Sequence record: PX246731.1
Direction: 5' to 3' (one strand)
DNA from: a phage
DNA length: 64,000 nucleotides
The position numbers and the translations under genes are program-made. Under the pieces are notes generated by a model. That model was given only the letters and a program-made list of their open reading frames with translations, made no database searches and had not been told where the DNA came from. Below are positions 911 to 61,227 of the stretch, in pieces. Positions within the stretch are counted from its first letter, which is position 1, and each line of letters starts with the position of its first letter.

Positions 911-1240
911 ATGAAAACTTTACTTAAAGGTATTGCAGTAGCTGCACTGATAGCTTTGGCTCCAAATGCACAAGCAATTGAGCCAGAACCAATTCTGGAA
1001 GGTGCTCAGGCTTATCTGGATGACACTCGCGATGCGTTCGGACAAGGATTCTTCATGGGCAGTATGATCTCTTACATCGAGAGCACAAATAACTGTGTTC
1101 CGGATGGTATGAAGTATTCCGACATTCTACCTAAGATTGCCAAAGTAGTTATTTATGATTCTGCAATCCTCAAATTGAAGAATACATCTCAAATTGTCGT
1201 GTACTCCGTACACAAGGCATATCCCTGCACTAAATCTTAA
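911..1240 (+). CDS. small secreted/periplasmic protein (signal peptide)
   Basis: N-terminus MKTLLKGIAVAALIALAPNAQA has a basic n-region, hydrophobic core and AxA cleavage motif. Confidence 0.45.
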   Translation: MKTLLKGIAVAALIALAPNAQAIEPEPILEGAQAYLDDTRDAFGQGFFMGSMISYIESTNNCVPDGMKYSDILPKIAKVVIYDSAILKLKNTSQIVVYSVHKAYPCTKS

Positions 1241-1274
1241 TCAGTAATCCCATTAGCTTTAGGAGAGTAAGTAA

Positions 1275-1588
1275 ATGGCAAGCATCGACTCCTTGACTGT
1301 ATGTAATTCACGTCAAGCTCGTAACTTTATTATCCGTGCCCTGAAAGCAGGTAACGTACCGTTCCTGACTTCATCACCTGGCATGGGTAAATCTGCAATC
1401 ATTCGTTCTATTGCAGAAGAATTTGGTATGAAGTTAATTGACCACCGTCTATCTACTTCTGCCCCGGAAGACCTGTCTGGCTTACCTTTCCGTAATGGTG
1501 ACCGTGCAGAGTTTATTCCATTCGCTGACTTATTCCCCATTGAGGGAGACGAAGTACCAGAAGGCTATAATGGCTGGCTCTTATTCCT
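1275..1588 (+). CDS. MoxR-like AAA+ ATPase, exon 1 of 3 (join 1275..1588, 2471..2804, 3671..4075)
   Basis: RBS aggag upstream of ATG 1275. Walker A SSPGMGKS. The ORF ends LLFL just before an in-frame stop; the Walker B continuation DEFN is found 882 nt downstream in frame. Confidence 0.7.
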
Positions 1589-2470
1589 TAACTGACGGGG
1601 CTTCATGAGAGCAATCTCATGTCGAAAGTTACCTAAACAGGGAACCTCTTCTAATATGGTTGGCTCAGGTGTATACTTGAGTTTTAATCAATTGGAGACA
1701 ATCCTGTGCTAAATAATGAAATTTGGAAAGATGTGCCCGACTTACCGTATGAAGTTTCCAACTTTGGTGTAGTACGCCGAAAAGAAGGAAAGTATAAATA
1801 CAAAAATAGGACACATATAAAACCGTATCTTAATAACAAAGGGTACTACTGCGTGAACCTGTACATGAATAGTAAAGTGTACAAATATCAAGTTCATCGT
1901 CTGGTAGGCATAGCCTTTGTACCAAACCCCAATAACTATCCAGTTATTAATCATATAGATGGAAACCCTCTTAATAACCACGAGAGTAACCTGGAATGGT
2001 GTACCCAGTCCCAAAATATTAAACATGCTTGGGATACTGGATTATTGTCAAACAGACATGCCAACGCTAGTAACAAAAATCGTGGAGGCTCCTCCAAATA
2101 CGTAGGTGTATCCTGGAGTGAGCAAAGACAAAGATGGTGTGCCCATATAAGGGTTAACAAGAAATCTATTGGTTTGGGACGTTACAAAACAGAGGAAGAG
2201 GCTGCCAAAGCCTATGACTCCTACGTAACTAACAACAATCTTACACAGATTGGGTACAGTACCAATTTCATTTAAACGCCAAACGACTATCGAAAACACA
2301 CAGAAATGTGGAAGTGAGTAGAGTAGGGTGCAAGCCAATGGCACTCGAAACGGTAACAGCCCTAGCAATAGGGCTTTGATATAGTCTCCTCTGCATGGTG
2401 ACATGCAGCAGTCAGTATTCACTGAGTGTACTGACGGCATTAGTAGTTGCGAACTAATGTGAAGATAATG
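1589..2470 (+). mobile_element. Group I intron 1 (self-splicing intron carrying an HNH homing endonuclease ORF)
   Basis: 5' exon ends in U (1588); intron ends in G (2470). GNRA hairpin catgaga-gcaa-tctcatg at 1604-1621. Core 2276-2470 contains gatatagtct (group IA S-element-like) and hairpin ctgcatg-gtga-catgcag at 2391-2408. Strong similarity with covariation to the second element at 2805-3670. Confidence 0.7.
1706..2275 (+). CDS. HNH homing endonuclease (NUMOD4 / HNH_3-type, intron-encoded)
   Basis: GTG start at 1706 with ggag RBS. N-terminal EIWKDV..YEVSNFGVV (NUMOD4-like), HRLVGIAF and NHIDGNPLNNHESNLEW (HNH), C-terminal AP2-like YVGVSW..W.A.I. Lies inside intron 1. Confidence 0.75.
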   Translation: MLNNEIWKDVPDLPYEVSNFGVVRRKEGKYKYKNRTHIKPYLNNKGYYCVNLYMNSKVYKYQVHRLVGIAFVPNPNNYPVINHIDGNPLNNHESNLEWCTQSQNIKHAWDTGLLSNRHANASNKNRGGSSKYVGVSWSEQRQRWCAHIRVNKKSIGLGRYKTEEEAAKAYDSYVTNNNLTQIGYSTNFI

Positions 2471-2804
2471 CGACGAGTTCAACTCAGCTAAGAAAGAAGT
2501 AGTAGCTGCTGCATACAAGCTGATTCTCGACCGTATGACTGGTCAGAAAAAGCTTCATCCTAACGTGATGATTGTCTGTGCTGGTAACAAAGCTACCGAC
2601 CGTGCCATTGTTAACCCATTGGGTACTGCAATGCAGTCTCGTGTGGTTCACTTTGAAATGGAACTTAACTTCGACATCTTTGTTGAAGACGTAATGATTC
2701 CTCAGCAATGGGATGAACGTCTGGTTGCATTCTTACATGCTAACCCAGGTTACCTGCATGACTTCGACCCAGCACACAAGAACAAAACGTTCTGTTGCCC
2801 ACGT
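2471..2804 (+). CDS. MoxR-like AAA+ ATPase, exon 2 of 3
   Basis: Begins DEFNSAKKEVVAAAYKLILDR, completing Walker B (LLFL|DEFN). Contains sensor-1-like VMIVCAGN. Proposed end at 2804 (U, codon boundary), 15 nt upstream of the intron 2 GNRA hairpin, the same spacing as in intron 1. Confidence 0.6.
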
Positions 2805-3670
2805 AAACACACTGCGATTCAGGGGAGTAATTCCCTGTCTAAAGCTGCCTAAAACGGGAAACACTTTACATTCTGTTGCCTAAAGGTAATATGTAAAAGT
2901 CAATCCGTTACTAAATTGGGAGTCAGCATGAGTGAGATTTGGAAAGATGTTGTTGAATTTGAAGGTTTATACCAAGTATCTAATACAGGTAAATACCGTA
3001 AGCATGAGTCACGCCAATCTGTAAATAAGTACAGAGAAGTTAAGCCCCTTATCAGGGCACTTAACAAGAACCGATTAGGTTATCTGTATGCCTCTATGTA
3101 CAAAGATGGGAAGACTCATAAGAAAACTATTCATCAACTCGTTTGTGCAGCATTTAAACCAGGCTTTAAGTATGGTGATCCTGTTAACCACTTAGATGGT
3201 AATAAGGAGAATAACCATGAAGACAACCTGGAACCATGCACCGCACAAGACAATAATCTCCATGCTCATAAAACTGGGCTAGCCCCTAAACCAGGTAAGT
3301 CTGTGTACCACAATGTGCACATACGTCGTAGTAAGTATAAAGATAAAATTTACACTTATTACGAAGCCAAGGTTAAAGATAATTACAAGGTAGTATTCTA
3401 CAAACAGTTTAAAGATGAGGTAGCTGCTGCTAAAGCCGTAGATGCCTATCTGGACTCAATTGGGGATACTAGACGTAAACGTAATTTCTGACTTCCATAA
3501 ATGTCCAACGACTATCCCGGGGAGGGAGTAGAGCATAAGCCAATGATGCTCGAAATGGTAGCCACCCTACAGGTAATGCTAAGGGTGTTGATATAGTCTA
3601 GTCTGCATGGTGACATGCAGCAGTTCATAAGAGAACGGGCGTAGTCTTGCGAACTACGTCGAATATCACG
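2805..3670 (+). mobile_element. Group I intron 2 (self-splicing intron carrying an HNH homing endonuclease ORF)
   Basis: GNRA hairpin cagggga-gtaa-ttccctg at 2820-2837. Core 3520-3670 shares gatatagtct and the ctgcatg-gtga-catgcag hairpin (3603-3620) with intron 1. 3'-terminal hairpin cgtagt/actacg (3640-3658) covaries with intron 1 attagt/actaat (2439-2458). Terminal G at 3670, 12 nt after that hairpin in both introns. Confidence 0.65.
2928..3491 (+). CDS. HNH homing endonuclease (NUMOD4 / HNH_3-type, intron-encoded)
   Basis: ATG 2928 with gggag RBS (ORF track starts at TTG 2916). SEIWKDVVEFEGLYQVSNTG (NUMOD4-like), HQLVCAAF and NHLDGNKENNHEDNLE (HNH). Distinct sequence from the intron 1 endonuclease. 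Confidence 0.75.
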   Translation: MSEIWKDVVEFEGLYQVSNTGKYRKHESRQSVNKYREVKPLIRALNKNRLGYLYASMYKDGKTHKKTIHQLVCAAFKPGFKYGDPVNHLDGNKENNHEDNLEPCTAQDNNLHAHKTGLAPKPGKSVYHNVHIRRSKYKDKIYTYYEAKVKDNYKVVFYKQFKDEVAAAKAVDAYLDSIGDTRRKRNF

Positions 3671-4075
3671 ACCTGGGACTTTGTTAATAAAGACCTCAAG
3701 AACCTACCGGAAGGTGCTCTGCCTGATGAGGATTCTATCTACTATGCAGGACACGTTACTGCTGGTAAGGCTACAGAGTTTGTTCAGTTTACACAGGTGT
3801 ACAATCGTATCATTACGATTGAGAAAGTAGTCAAAGACCCACTGGGCTGTGCACTACCGGAAGATAACAACCTGTGCTGGGCTACTGTTAACCATCTGGC
3901 TAACAAAACTACTGAAGAGAACTTCGCTGATGTTCTTCAGTACATTGAACGCTTTAAAACGTTCACCCATAAGATTCTGTACTTCCGTACAGTAGGCAAT
4001 GCATTACCAGATCTTCAGGCTACCCCTGAATGGCGTAAGGCTGCTGCTAATATCTCTCGCTATATTCACGGATAA
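3671..4075 (+). CDS. MoxR-like AAA+ ATPase, exon 3 of 3
   Basis: Frame is open from 3614; first exon codon proposed at 3671 (acc, TWDFVNKDL...) immediately after the intron terminal G. Stop at 4073-4075. The three exons sum to 1053 nt (350 aa). Confidence 0.6.
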   Translation, partial: TWDFVNKDLKNLPEGALPDEDSIYYAGHVTAGKATEFVQFTQVYNRIITIEKVVKDPLGCALPEDNNLCWATVNHLANKTTEENFADVLQYIERFKTFTHKILYFRTVGNALPDLQATPEWRKAAANISRYIHG

Positions 4076-4082
4076 TCACAAC

Positions 4083-5258
4083 ATGAACCAATTTCCTCAG
4101 CACACACTTAGTGATGAACAACTCATGCGTGAGTATGACCGTATTCAGGCTCAGGCCTTCCTGGGCAAGTCTGCTGCGTTCTTTGGTTCATTGCTGTGTA
4201 GTCTTAAGTTCTCATGGAAACGTGAGGATTGCCCCACTGCATGTACTGATGGGATAGAACTCCATTTCAACCCAGACTTCTTTATCTGGATGTGTCCAGA
4301 TGCAAGAGAAACAGTATTAATGCATGAACTATGGCATGTAGCATATCTACATGACATCCGTCGTGGAAGCCGTGACCCGGAAATCTGGAACCAGGCTTGT
4401 GACCACTTCATTAACCTTCAGTTAGAAGAAGATGGTTACAAGTTCACTGGCATTGACAAAGGCATTTGCAAAGACCCTCAATATAAAGGATGGGTCGAAG
4501 AAGACATCTACGATGACCTGATGAAGAACCCTCAGAAAAGGCAGAAGCCGTCAGGGGGTGCTGGAGCAGGTCTTGCTGGCGACATGAAATCCCCCACTTC
4601 GGGGCAGTCCCAGGGTGCTGTTGTCAACAACGTAGTACGTGCAATGCAGAGCCAAAAGATGGCTGGTGGAACAATGCCCGGTAAGGGTGCTGGTCGTATG
4701 GAAGAGGTTATTACCCAATTCCTTAAACCAGTGGTTCCATGGCAGGAAGTTCTCATGAACTTCTTTACCGACATTGATGACACACATTATACGTGGGCCA
4801 GACCTAACCGTCGTTACACTGACATCTATCTACCTTCACTGGAAGATGATGAAGGTCGTTTACGCCACTTAGCCTACTTTGAGGATGTGTCTGGTTCTAT
4901 TAGTAGTGCTGACTCTCTGCGTTTTAACTCAGAGGTCGCCTATGTTAAGAGCCAGTTTAATCCTAAGAAGATGACCCTAATTACCTTCGACGATACTATT
5001 CAAGAAGAGATAGACATCACTGAAGAAGATACTTTTGAAGAGATTAAGATTACTGGTCGTGGTGGTACAAACCTGGAACCAGTACGCGAGTGGATTATTA
5101 AGAATAAGCCAACCGCTGCAATCATATTCTCCGATATGTATGTTCGCCCAATGGAAGAATTGCCATTTGATATCCCTATCATCTGGTGTGTTCTGAATAA
5201 TCCTAATGCTACCGTACCTTTTGGGGAGGTAGTTCATATCCCTAAAGGAATGAAATAA
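4083..5258 (+). CDS. VWA-like domain protein with HExxH metallopeptidase-like N-domain (MoxR partner, DUF2201/COG3864-like)
   Basis: HELWH motif (HExxH) in the N-domain; C-terminal VWA-like region (MTLITFDDT..ITGRGGTN). Sits directly downstream of the MoxR ATPase, the canonical MoxR-VWA arrangement. Start chosen at the first ATG after the exon 3 stop; ORF track shows an upstream extension from 3999. Confidence 0.6.
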   Translation: MNQFPQHTLSDEQLMREYDRIQAQAFLGKSAAFFGSLLCSLKFSWKREDCPTACTDGIELHFNPDFFIWMCPDARETVLMHELWHVAYLHDIRRGSRDPEIWNQACDHFINLQLEEDGYKFTGIDKGICKDPQYKGWVEEDIYDDLMKNPQKRQKPSGGAGAGLAGDMKSPTSGQSQGAVVNNVVRAMQSQKMAGGTMPGKGAGRMEEVITQFLKPVVPWQEVLMNFFTDIDDTHYTWARPNRRYTDIYLPSLEDDEGRLRHLAYFEDVSGSISSADSLRFNSEVAYVKSQFNPKKMTLITFDDTIQEEIDITEEDTFEEIKITGRGGTNLEPVREWIIKNKPTAAIIFSDMYVRPMEELPFDIPIIWCVLNNPNATVPFGEVVHIPKGMK

Positions 5259-5800
5259 TGGAAACACCCATAAAAACCTGTCGCAAGTGTTTGCAGGAGT
5301 TCCCGGCTACGCTTGAGTTCTTTTACAAGAACGCTGGTGGCAAATATGGGGTAACTCCACGGTGCAAATCATGTGTTAATGAGGATAATGCAGCCGGGCA
5401 TGCAAAACGTTTGGCTGCTAATCCAGAAAAGATACGTGCTCAAGCTGCTGCCCGTAGTAAAAAACATTATTACAAAGATTTGGAACAATCGCGTGAACGA
5501 CAGTGTATAGCTCAAAAGAAAGCGAGAAATGATCCCGTAAGGGGAGAACGTATTAAAGCACGTAAACGTGCAAATGGTGCTGGGCTAACACCGGAAGAGA
5601 TACAACAACTCCTCATTAGTCAAGGAGGCGTGTGTGCTATCTGTGGTGATCCACCTACCGATTTAGACCATTGCCATAAAACAGGTAAAGTTAGATTTCT
5701 ACTATGTAAGCATTGCAATAGAGGACTGGGTGCTTTTAAAGATAAGCCAGAACTAATGCGAAAAGCTGCACAACTACTGGAAGACTTCAATGATAATTAA
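5258..5800 (+). CDS. Endonuclease VII-like HNH nuclease (free-standing homing-endonuclease-like)
   Basis: Paired Cys motifs: CRKC..C.SC at the N-terminus and GGVCAICGD..DLDHCHKTGKVRFLLCKHCNRGLGAFKD (Endonuclease_7/HNH-type zinc site). Start overlaps the upstream stop (TAATG). Confidence 0.65.
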   Translation: METPIKTCRKCLQEFPATLEFFYKNAGGKYGVTPRCKSCVNEDNAAGHAKRLAANPEKIRAQAAARSKKHYYKDLEQSRERQCIAQKKARNDPVRGERIKARKRANGAGLTPEEIQQLLISQGGVCAICGDPPTDLDHCHKTGKVRFLLCKHCNRGLGAFKDKPELMRKAAQLLEDFNDN

Positions 5801-59616: not shown

Positions 59617-61227
59617 TCACACAATGTATGAACGTAGAGGGTTAACACTATCTTCTTCTTCATCATCCCACATTGGGTCACCCTTGTTATCCACCATAGT
59701 CATACCTGCTTGTGGTTTCCAAGGATTGAGATAACCCAGCATGGAGATAGTATCAATACAGTCATCCTTACCTTTGATTCCATTAATGGTAGCTAGTTTA
59801 ATCTGGCCCATGAACAGACCCATAATAGTTGAATCTCTCAACTCTTCCGGGAAATACATCTTACCAGCCTTGAACCAGGGAACTACCAGGTTAAAACGTG
59901 ACAGCTTAGAGGTTACAGGACGTATACCTGGCTTACCACCCTCAGAGGATGCAAAGTTAAAGAAGACATTACGGTTAATCATTTCTTTCTGAAGGAGTGA
60001 AATGAAACCACCTTGTTGCCCTGTAATTTCGACCCCAACGTTTTGGGGTTGGTATTCTTGAACCAGACGGAATAAGTCATCAAAGTTTTTATCCATAAGC
60101 TGACGATTAGCCACACCATCAACCCAGAACCAATCTCCATTAGAACTATAAGCCCAAACTGATATGACACTGTAGTCACTGGTCTGTTTCTCCGAAGTAG
60201 CAAAGTCGGTTGTAATGTAATAGTTATAGCAAGACTTCATCCTTAACAGTTGCTGTCTGCTATACCATCTAATTTCACTATCCTGAACCAGTCTCTCATC
60301 TTCGGAGCTAATACGGAGCATAAGTTCCTGATAGAAGCCAGCCAACTTACCAGTTTTAACTGCCATGTCATATTGGGCTTTGATATAGTCGTAAGAGAAA
60401 CGGTCATCCCATGCACCCTGAAATTCTTCCCTACTACAGGGGAACTTCTCACACACAGGCCATACGTTGACATCCCATGCACCAGACTCTACTGCTTCAA
60501 TGATAATGTCTTCCTTATTAAAAGGAGTACCGTTGAAGATTACTTTACGTCGAGTTGGATCAAGAGCATGGTTCACACCTTTATAGACGGTATCCTTAAT
60601 AGCTTCCATGCTAGTCTTGGAGTTAGCATCACCATCACTAATCAAGTCATCCAGTACACATAGTGTTGGACGTTTACCATATATCTTCGTACCACGAAGA
60701 CCTGTCTTAGCACCAAACAGCTTAACACCAAGACGATGCCCTTCTACATTACGGAACTCCAGTAGGTTATCCGTAAAGGTAGCTTCAGGTATCCATTGCT
60801 GGAGGAACTCACTATTCTTGTAACGAAACTCAATGTTCTTACGTGCAGATTTAGCACCGTTATCCATTGAGTCAGATACGTAAATCATTCCTTCTACTTT
60901 ACCCAGGCTTGGTAAGTGACCAAACACTGCCAGGAACAGAGTAAAGTATTCCATGAACACAGCAGTCTTACCAGCACCACGGAAGCATAGGTTAACTACA
61001 TACTGGTTCGGACTAATCATCTTATCCAGCATCTTCAAGTGAACTGGAGGTGTTTTGTTGGATTCACCCTCTTTGCCATTAACCAACTTAATAAAGTTGG
61101 CAAAGGTAAGAGCAAACTGACTAGGAACATAGTTAGATGAATTAAGGTGTGAGTAATCCACCTGGTCCAGCCATTCATCCAGTTCCTGCTTAATTAACTC
61201 AGACATCTGTAATGTCCTCATCTGCAC
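59617..61227 (-). CDS. terminase large subunit
   Basis: Walker A-like LCFRGAGKTAV, Walker B-like LCVLDDLISD, C-terminal nuclease-like acidic motifs; 536 aa at the canonical end of the late block. Confidence 0.7.
   Translation of the reverse strand: MQMRTLQMSELIKQELDEWLDQVDYSHLNSSNYVPSQFALTFANFIKLVNGKEGESNKTPPVHLKMLDKMISPNQYVVNLCFRGAGKTAVFMEYFTLFLAVFGHLPSLGKVEGMIYVSDSMDNGAKSARKNIEFRYKNSEFLQQWIPEATFTDNLLEFRNVEGHRLGVKLFGAKTGLRGTKIYGKRPTLCVLDDLISDGDANSKTSMEAIKDTVYKGVNHALDPTRRKVIFNGTPFNKEDIIIEAVESGAWDVNVWPVCEKFPCSREEFQGAWDDRFSYDYIKAQYDMAVKTGKLAGFYQELMLRISSEDERLVQDSEIRWYSRQQLLRMKSCYNYYITTDFATSEKQTSDYSVISVWAYSSNGDWFWVDGVANRQLMDKNFDDLFRLVQEYQPQNVGVEITGQQGGFISLLQKEMINRNVFFNFASSEGGKPGIRPVTSKLSRFNLVVPWFKAGKMYFPEELRDSTIMGLFMGQIKLATINGIKGKDDCIDTISMLGYLNPWKPQAGMTMVDNKGDPMWDDEEEDSVNPLRSYIV

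Follow-up and report, generated by a model that had tools for sequence, protein, structure and literature searches.

The phage sequence PX246731.1, analysed here as a single window of 64,000 nucleotides (nt), contains an N4 gp24-like MoxR AAA+ ATPase gene that is interrupted within the codons of its Walker B motif. From sequence comparison, we put the probability at about 90% that the interruption at positions 1589–2470 (intron 1) is a mobile group I intron of subgroup IA2, the type represented by the td intron of phage T4. A first-pass annotation of the same DNA had already proposed an intron at this place; its observation is confirmed here and its interpretation supported. Megablast of positions 1200–4200 against phage genomes placed the window in Gamaleyavirus (Schitoviridae, N4-like phages, G7C/Bp4 group), with NAN33P5 as the nearest record (96% identity). 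Our literature search found no description of intron 1, and the sole prior hint is a RefSeq note, “Phage intron,” on gp27 of phage U1G. Intron 1 represents a well-known kind of selfish element, to which it adds a good new example, and involves no new mechanism.

The ATPase gene (1275–4075) is a homologue of N4 gp24 and consists of three exons. The uninterrupted gene of phage nithesis (XRM24170) aligned by BLASTN to positions 1200–4200 of the window as three colinear pieces (1275–1589, 2472–2805, and 3671–4075), and each exon–intron junction was ambiguous by one base in this alignment. Only the boundaries 1589–2470 for intron 1 and 2805–3670 for a second intron (intron 2) provide the canonical exon-terminal U and intron-terminal G, and these were therefore adopted. 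The 5′ exon of intron 1 ends at U1588 and excision restores the reading frame exactly: exon 1 ends ...GGC TGG CTC TTA TTC CT (G W L L F L), exon 2 starts C GAC GAG TTC AAC TCA GCT, and the junction CT/C lies inside the Leu105 codon, one base ahead of Asp106 (spliced, GWLLFL/DEFNSA). The first-pass annotation had given the range as 1580–2483, with exon 1 ending in GWLLFL and exon 2 starting with DEFNSA. The intron and these flanking residues are correct; the range includes 9 and 13 exon bases too many, and the junction falls within a codon, not between two codons. Joined, the three exons form a coding sequence of 1053 nt for 350 amino acids (aa), which is colinear with intron-less homologues and 99.1% identical to the PD38 protein (tblastn). 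The spliced product reads ...GWLLFLDEFNSA... and ...EGYNGWLLFLDEFNSAKKEV..., and the same is found in ten intron-less or otherwise spliced relatives. On the unspliced RNA, the frame ends ...LFLN at an in-frame TGA (1593–1595), five bases into intron 1. An intein was rejected on account of this stop codon directly after exon 1. There is no in-frame start codon at the beginning of exon 2 and none before Met127; an ATG at 2468 lies in a different frame, which ends at a stop codon. Thus, a separately made exon 2 fragment would have neither Walker motif.

The interrupted sequence is a real Walker B motif of a MoxR-type AAA+ ATPase. The Pfam AAA domain (PF00004) spans residues 31–146 (E = 5.7e-6), and both Walker patterns are present, with LLFLDE of Walker B occupying residues 102–107. 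Across an alignment of 79 homologues (50–97% identity), D106 and E107 of Walker B and G38-K39-S40 of Walker A are invariant, and W101, F104, and L105 are conserved in 90% or more. Thus, the claim that the intron splits the hydrophobic stretch of Walker B from its acidic pair (hhhh/DE), and that splicing would restore the motif, holds. A profile of the 79 homologues yielded no match in the PDB at E ≤ 1e-3, and at E ≤ 10 just Midasin and PspF. In these alignments (HMMER, weak E-values), GWLLFLDEFNSA was paired with ...LDELNLA in the AAA modules of Midasin and with GGTLFLDELATAP in PspF, LFLDE over LFLDE; D107/E108 is the Walker B pair of PspF. The assignment therefore rests on motif invariance, these weak alignments, and the predicted fold. 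The AlphaFold2 model (predicted local distance difference test score, pLDDT, 91.6), built on an intron-less ATPase 97% identical to the spliced product (P0001), has beta strands at residues 29–33 and 101–106, and its best fold matches in the PDB are the MoxR ATPases NorQ (E = 1.7e-8) and CbbQ2.

The sequence on either side of the open reading frame (ORF) within intron 1 forms a group I ribozyme core that is supported by covariation. We compared five cores from which the ORFs had been removed: introns 1 and 2 of the window, intron 1 of U1G, the intron of pSb-1, and T4 td. Unguided folding with RNAalifold found the paired regions P1, P2, P3, P4, P5, P7.1, P7.2, P8, and P9, with compensatory changes in 33 of 68 pairs. 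In a td-type model including the P3/P7 pseudoknot (58 pairs), 97.9% of cells are paired and 27 pairs have changed on both sides, compared to 85.6% of cells paired in shuffled controls and 31–43%, with at most 4 double-change pairs, when the partners were slid; none of 500 shuffles matched the value of the td-type model on four of five measures. The IA2-specific P7.1 and P7.2 are present between P7 and P3, the latter with three compensatory pairs. P7 itself is invariant across the five cores, so it is uninformative for covariation. The core differs from that of U1G intron 1 at seven positions, two of which together make a compensatory change in P7.1 (A-U to G-C), while three keep GNRA tetraloops (P2, P7.1, and P8), one lies in the P1 loop, and one in the P5 extension. 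The wobble at the splice site (U1588·G1598) is kept as U·G in all four Gamaleyavirus rows of the alignment; in the T4 td row, the alignment at P1 is faulty. By BLASTN, the 3′ 140 nt of intron 1 resemble the intron cores of many phages, including T4-like, Vibrio, Pseudomonas, Campylobacter, and Bacillus phages. Profile hidden Markov models (HMMs) of the two core halves matched the window at 1622–1712 (E = 2.5e-24) and 2274–2411 (E = 1e-42; nhmmer), and within the 64 kb both halves match only introns 1 and 2. The core word GATATAGTC has a third perfect match at position 60382, which was dismissed as chance: its surroundings are not intron-like and the core profile HMMs miss the site.

The ORF of intron 1 is intact, without a frameshift, and encodes three recognizable domains: NUMOD4 (E = 1e-9), HNH_3 (PF13392, E = 3.8e-8), and AP2 (E = 4.6e-10). 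Residues 7–120 align with the homing endonuclease I-HmuI (PDB 1U3E, E = 2e-12), the tail aligns with plant AP2 domains, and a conserved DH/NH…N HNH motif can be read from the I-HmuI alignment, with H83 as its conserved histidine. Based on these similarities, the product appears to be an I-HmuI-like HNH endonuclease with an AP2 module, and it is predicted to nick DNA; I-HmuI-type enzymes introduce single-strand nicks, not double-strand breaks. Compared with U1G, the proportions of synonymous (pS) and nonsynonymous (pN) differences are 0.23 and 0.017, and the resulting pN/pS of 0.07 indicates that the protein is under purifying selection. The ORF is interlocked with the ribozyme. Codons 4–7 (1715–1726) pair with the last ORF codons (2262–2272) to form P6a, the Shine-Dalgarno sequence GGAG (1694–1697) is the 3′ strand of P5, and the GTG start at 1706, which corresponds in position to an ATG in the sister intron of pSb-1, overlaps the 3′ strand of P4. 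In intron 2, one strand of P6a contains the Shine-Dalgarno sequence GGGAG and the other the 3′ terminus of the ORF. Because the ribosome-binding site and GTG of intron 1 lie inside P5 and P4 strands, translation of the endonuclease and splicing are probably mutually exclusive on one RNA, and translation and folding probably compete for each molecule.

Presence of intron 1 is polymorphic. The 60-nt site is uninterrupted in 71 of 77 matching phage records, including N4 gp24, and is split only in U1G and NAN33P5; eight close alleles uninterrupted at this site share all 21 nt 3′ of the junction. This agrees with the expectation in the first-pass annotation that intron-less relatives would carry a conserved target. 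Its further premise, that such elements occupy the most conserved sequence, stood at the protein level (top 7%, distant relatives) and fared less well at the nucleotide level, where the site ranks only in the top ~18% among close relatives.

The sequence of intron 1 appears to have moved between backgrounds that differ. It is identical to the NAN33P5 copy at 882 of 882 bases, whereas exons 1 and 2 are only 91.4 and 90.7% identical; at the divergence of the exons, the chance of no difference in 882 bases is ~1e-36. In the endonuclease gene, pS is 0, and the exon values (pS 0.34, pN 0.015) indicate strong purifying selection on the ATPase exons. A scan of IMG/VR with a single protein returned only 11 loci. 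In the ten metagenomic loci examined, the endonuclease follows the same 106-aa exon 1 ORF, or follows another intron (intron A, described below) in the locus L023, and the intron is 99.1–100% identical to that of the window compared to ~90–92% for the exons, except exon 2 of L022 (96.1%). The exact endonuclease protein occurs on 19 contigs from different samples. The window exons are ~95% identical to those of intron-less PD38 and nithesis and ~91% to those of any intron-bearing genome, which suggests that both introns of the window entered a PD38-like background recently. Overall, sequence evidence provides good support for the view that intron 1 is, or recently was, mobile. Likewise, the td-like core with its covariation, the 19 independent contigs, and the lack of an exon 2 start all favor an intron over a gene fusion artefact, as had been proposed.

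Long co-conversion tracts were sought around intron 1 and none were found; only two bases of exon 2 track the intron, both of them synonymous variants tied to its presence. Each of the eight intron-bearing alleles set beside that of the window has a C at +1 (C2471), which none of nine intron-less alleles has; a C at +4 (C2474) is present in six of the eight and again in none of the nine. These bases could represent either a minimal co-conversion tract or adaptation; the +1 C would strengthen a P10 pair with G1597.

We propose that intron 1 works as follows. In the folded pre-mRNA, P1 would form between exon CCU and the guide GGGG, placing a U·G at the splice site, and guanosine-initiated self-splicing would then remove 882 nt and join CT to C, yielding Leu105-Asp106-Glu107 and an intact ATPase. 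On unspliced RNA, the in-frame TGA would halt ribosomes. The gene in the P6a loop would provide an I-HmuI-like HNH enzyme with NUMOD4 and AP2 as DNA-binding modules. During mixed infection, this enzyme would be expected to nick or cut the conserved Walker B-coding DNA of intron-less Gamaleyavirus genomes, and repair from an intron-bearing genome would copy the intron together with a very short flank (exon 2 C at +1 and +4).

Several observations weigh against this reading. First, Rfam found no match at its gathering thresholds in the whole window. An E-value search with RF00028, whose gathering score is 50 bits, gave 18.9 bits (E = 0.08) for intron 1 and 32.6 bits (E = 6e-6) for intron 2; however, T4 td, an intron proven by experiment, reached only 40.3 bits when scored with its ORF included, likewise below 50. 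Thus, missing the threshold is a trait of ORF-bearing phage introns and the threshold test does not discriminate. Second, the covariation is based on five sequences (td and three independent lineages), and part of the structure came from these same sequences; P1 comprises only 4 base pairs, two of which are wobbles. Third, the first differences between the window and NAN33P5 lie only 5 nt 5′ and 7 nt 3′ of the identical intron. Tracts of a few bases would be shorter than is usual for phage homing and leave room for another route of transfer. Finally, enzymes of the I-HmuI type nick intron-plus and intron-minus DNA alike, and the logic of cutting an empty site may therefore fail.

The ATPase gene is colonised at three sites in Gamaleyavirus. 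In addition to intron 1 (intron B) at Walker B and intron 2 (intron C) at the invariant Arg216, a possible sensor 2 residue, the likewise td-like intron A follows codon 67 (...EDL(CT/T), EDL/SGLP) in pSb-1, PW8, and L023, where it occupies a conserved stretch before a predicted beta-hairpin (residues 70–81). In pSb-1, the exon 3′ of intron A is heavily recoded by synonymous changes (TCT GGC TTA CCT to AGT GGT CTG CCA). The endonucleases of introns A and C are 34–37% identical to that of intron B. Alleles were observed with no intron, with A, B, or C alone (the last in P0024, with the read-through ...CCPRKHTAIQ), with A and B (L023), and with B and C, and intron B assorts independently of A and C. 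Ranked by conservation among 341 ten-residue windows, the three sites are 11, 24, and 21; the post-hoc probability that all three would fall within the top 24 at random is ~3e-4, and a location at conserved sites by chance is unlikely. A broader scenario, which we put forward only tentatively and consider rather doubtful, is that three td-like introns with their own diverged HNH endonucleases sweep through Gamaleyavirus in all combinations, almost without co-conversion. The gene would then be an arena for endonuclease weapons between co-infecting phages, with sites seeded by reverse splicing at CCU and translation gated by P4–P5 folding.

A narrower alternative, which concerns only the origin of the site and which we judge unlikely, is that the ribozyme and not the endonuclease chose it, through reverse splicing into a CCU-bearing RNA, reverse transcription, and recombination; the intron would persist since only precise insertions in essential sequence survive. 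The extremely short co-conversion tracts would fit this route. Introns A (pSb-1) and B both follow ...CCU, begin with UAAC, and have (A/G)GGG guides, and the three introns are related, yet their endonucleases have diverged as far as noted above. However, a three-base complementarity occurs many times in the gene, intron C follows ACGU and not CCU, and no reverse transcriptase is evident. Moreover, each site has its own diverged and selected endonuclease, as expected if the enzyme sets specificity. Improbable, in our estimation, is an intron that has become resident and immobile, its endonuclease being retained as a maturase or as a nickase against competitors and its identical copies reflecting ordinary recombination during co-infection. 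Purifying selection on the ORF is silent on which activity is selected, and use of an intronic HNH endonuclease as a competition weapon is documented in PhiPA3 (PMC11620839). Ordinary recombination would nevertheless bring long flanks, whereas identity falls from 100 to ~91% a few bases from both junctions, and the independent assortment relative to introns A and C also argues against a resident element. Finally, public annotations give the pieces as separate “ATPase” coding sequences, as if a free-standing endonuclease gene had split the ATPase into separately translated, reassembling fragments or a pseudogene, but the complete td-like ribozyme flanking the ORF, the missing start in exon 2, and the strong purifying selection on the exons make this highly improbable.

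Among known systems, the T4 td intron (IA2, I-TevI) is a close counterpart of the proposed mobile intron. The two ribozymes are homologous helix for helix from P1 to P9.2, the P9 and P7 strands and J4/6 (GCUAAAU) are identical, both 3′ ends read ...AUAAUG, and the P1 loops are similar in length and sequence (UAACUGAC in intron 1 and UAAUUGAG in td). Both also have the ORF in the P6a loop, an in-frame stop after the 5′ splice site, and a coliphage host. They differ in host gene (thymidylate synthase for td, the MoxR ATPase for intron 1) and in endonuclease (GIY-YIG in td, NUMOD4-HNH-AP2 here). In addition, the ORF of intron 1 reaches back into the core, where P4 holds its start and P5 its Shine-Dalgarno sequence, and intron 1 has an extra P5a hairpin and a longer P7.1. 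The endonuclease itself recalls those of the introns in the SPO1 and SP82 DNA polymerase genes (I-HmuI/I-HmuII), HNH nicking homing endonucleases that are likewise intron-encoded within an essential conserved gene of a lytic phage: the N-terminal 114 aligned residues of the ORF match I-HmuI. The alignment stops short of the C-terminal region of I-HmuI, where the enzyme of intron 1 has its AP2 module; the ribozyme of intron 1 is td-like, and nicking here is a prediction.

Other selfish elements offer further comparisons. In phage PhiPA3, a group I intron of an essential gene encodes the HNH endonuclease gp210, whose target is the intron-free allele in a related phage infecting the same cell (Birkholz et al., 2024, PMC11620839). 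Intron 1 resembles it as a group I intron that interrupts a phage gene and encodes an HNH enzyme; the PhiPA3 case, however, involves an RNA polymerase gene of a jumbo phage, and nicking and a competitive advantage have been demonstrated there. Inteins with homing endonucleases lie at the Walker B motif or P-loop of AAA+ and RecA-type ATPases such as PolIII gamma, MCM, and RFC (Novikova et al., 2016, PMC4760082). They too are selfish elements in or beside an AAA+ Walker B motif and invade an invariant catalytic sequence, but they splice in frame at the protein level, whereas intron 1 would act at the RNA level and has a stop codon after exon 1. The N4-like podovirus Vibrio phage pVa5 carries a group I intron with an HNH endonuclease, as here, but in the td gene (PMC5746245), and thus differs in host gene (thymidylate synthase), phage genus, and insertion site. 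Self-splicing enables homing endonucleases to colonise strongly conserved sequence (Stoddard, 2014, PMC3943268), and the catalytic-motif location of intron 1 matches this general rule.

These results correct the annotation of public records, which give two or three “ATPase” fragments together with “HNH endonuclease” genes, and add the N4 gp24-type MoxR ATPase gene to the few phage genes known to host group I introns. Intron 1 would be the RNA-level counterpart of the Walker B inteins of other AAA+ ATPases. Three polymorphic sites, with all the observed combinations available in cultured Escherichia coli phages, form a convenient and tractable experimental system, suited to the study of homing with short tracts, spread to new sites, and nickase advantage in mixed infection (compare PhiPA3). 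The HNH-AP2 endonucleases are candidates for new site-specific nickases.

Coordinates of intron 1, its ribozyme helices, the ATPase exons and associated features (window positions unless another locus is named)
Feature	Position	Strand	Description and basis
ATPase exon 1	1275–1588	+	Met1 to first two bases of Leu105 codon; colinear with nithesis
Walker A PGMGKS	1377–1394	+	Residues 35–40, exon 1
WLLFL, hydrophobic strand of Walker B	1575–1588	+	Exon 1
Intron 1, group I, subgroup IA2, T4 td-like	1589–2470	+	882 nt; starts UAACUGAC, ends ...GAUAAUG (omega-G 2470)
P1 hairpin	1586–1600	+	Exon CCU and intron U (1586–1589) pair with guide GGGG (1597–1600); unguided RNAalifold
5′ ribozyme half	1589–1714	+	Helix coordinates from structure model, pair counts, nhmmer
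P2 (GCAA loop)	1604–1621	+	5′ half
P3 5′ strand	1628–1633	+	5′ half
P4 5′ strand	1637–1642	+	5′ half
P5 5′ strand	~1646–1649	+	5′ half
P5a	1664–1681	+	5′ half
P5 3′ strand (GGAG)	1694–1697	+	5′ half
P4 3′ strand	1702–1707	+	5′ half
P6 5′ strand	1708–1709	+	5′ half
Homing endonuclease ORF	1706–2275	+	189 aa, GTG start; NUMOD4, HNH_3, AP2 (Pfam); in P6a loop
3′ ribozyme half	2276–2470	+	BLASTN similarity to phage intron cores; nhmmer
P6 3′ strand	2278–2279	+	3′ half
P7 5′ strand	2285–2290	+	3′ half
P7.1 (GAAA loop)	2299–2310	+	3′ half
P7.2	2326–2346	+	3′ half
P3 3′ strand	2352–2357	+	3′ half
P8 (GCAA loop)	2359–2374	+	3′ half
P7 3′ strand	2381–2386	+	3′ half
P9	2391–2408	+	3′ half
P9.1	2411–2435	+	3′ half
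P9.2	2438–2459	+	3′ half
ATPase exon 2	2471–2804	+	Third base of Leu105 codon, D106 E107 ... R216; colinear with nithesis
Walker B DE	2472–2477	+	Exon 2
Intron 2 (intron C), sister td-like group I	2805–3670	+	After invariant Arg216 codon, CCPR/TW; RF00028, covariation, nhmmer
Intron 2 NUMOD4-HNH ORF	2928–3491	+	Endonuclease 34% identical to that of intron 1
ATPase exon 3	3671–4075	+	T217 to stop codon; colinear with nithesis
DUF2201/VWA-like partner gene	4083–5258	+	391 aa; phrog_1314; PF13203 and PF09967 on same-sized product at same position in related contigs
Intron A	L003 (pSb-1) 1776–2643; L005 (PW8) 1776–2643; L023 1902–2769		NUMOD4-HNH-AP2 ORF

The gene directly downstream of the ATPase encodes a VWA-like protein that, by analogy with NorQ–NorD and given the CbbQ fold matches, would be the expected partner of a MoxR-type ATPase. 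It is named “HNH endonuclease” by phrog_1314 and in several GenBank and RefSeq records; we saw no support for this name, which looks like a propagated misannotation. The U1G annotation divides the same gene into two ORFs, which suggests a frameshift or a sequencing error. A disrupted frame was also seen in one ATPase homologue, the 268-aa protein of Escherichia phage vB_EcoS_Uz-1 (P0056), whose sequence is normal as far as residue ~186 and lies in a different frame thereafter; this is probably a frameshift error or a pseudogene, and no intron. Between the VWA-like and dCTP deaminase genes, the window has a free-standing ORF of the Endonuclease_7 family (180 aa, 5258–5800). A 78% identical copy is present in the loci L020 and L024, and the ORF is absent in nithesis, IME11, and L022, where the flanking genes abut. 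It is thus a second polymorphic, and probably mobile, nuclease gene.

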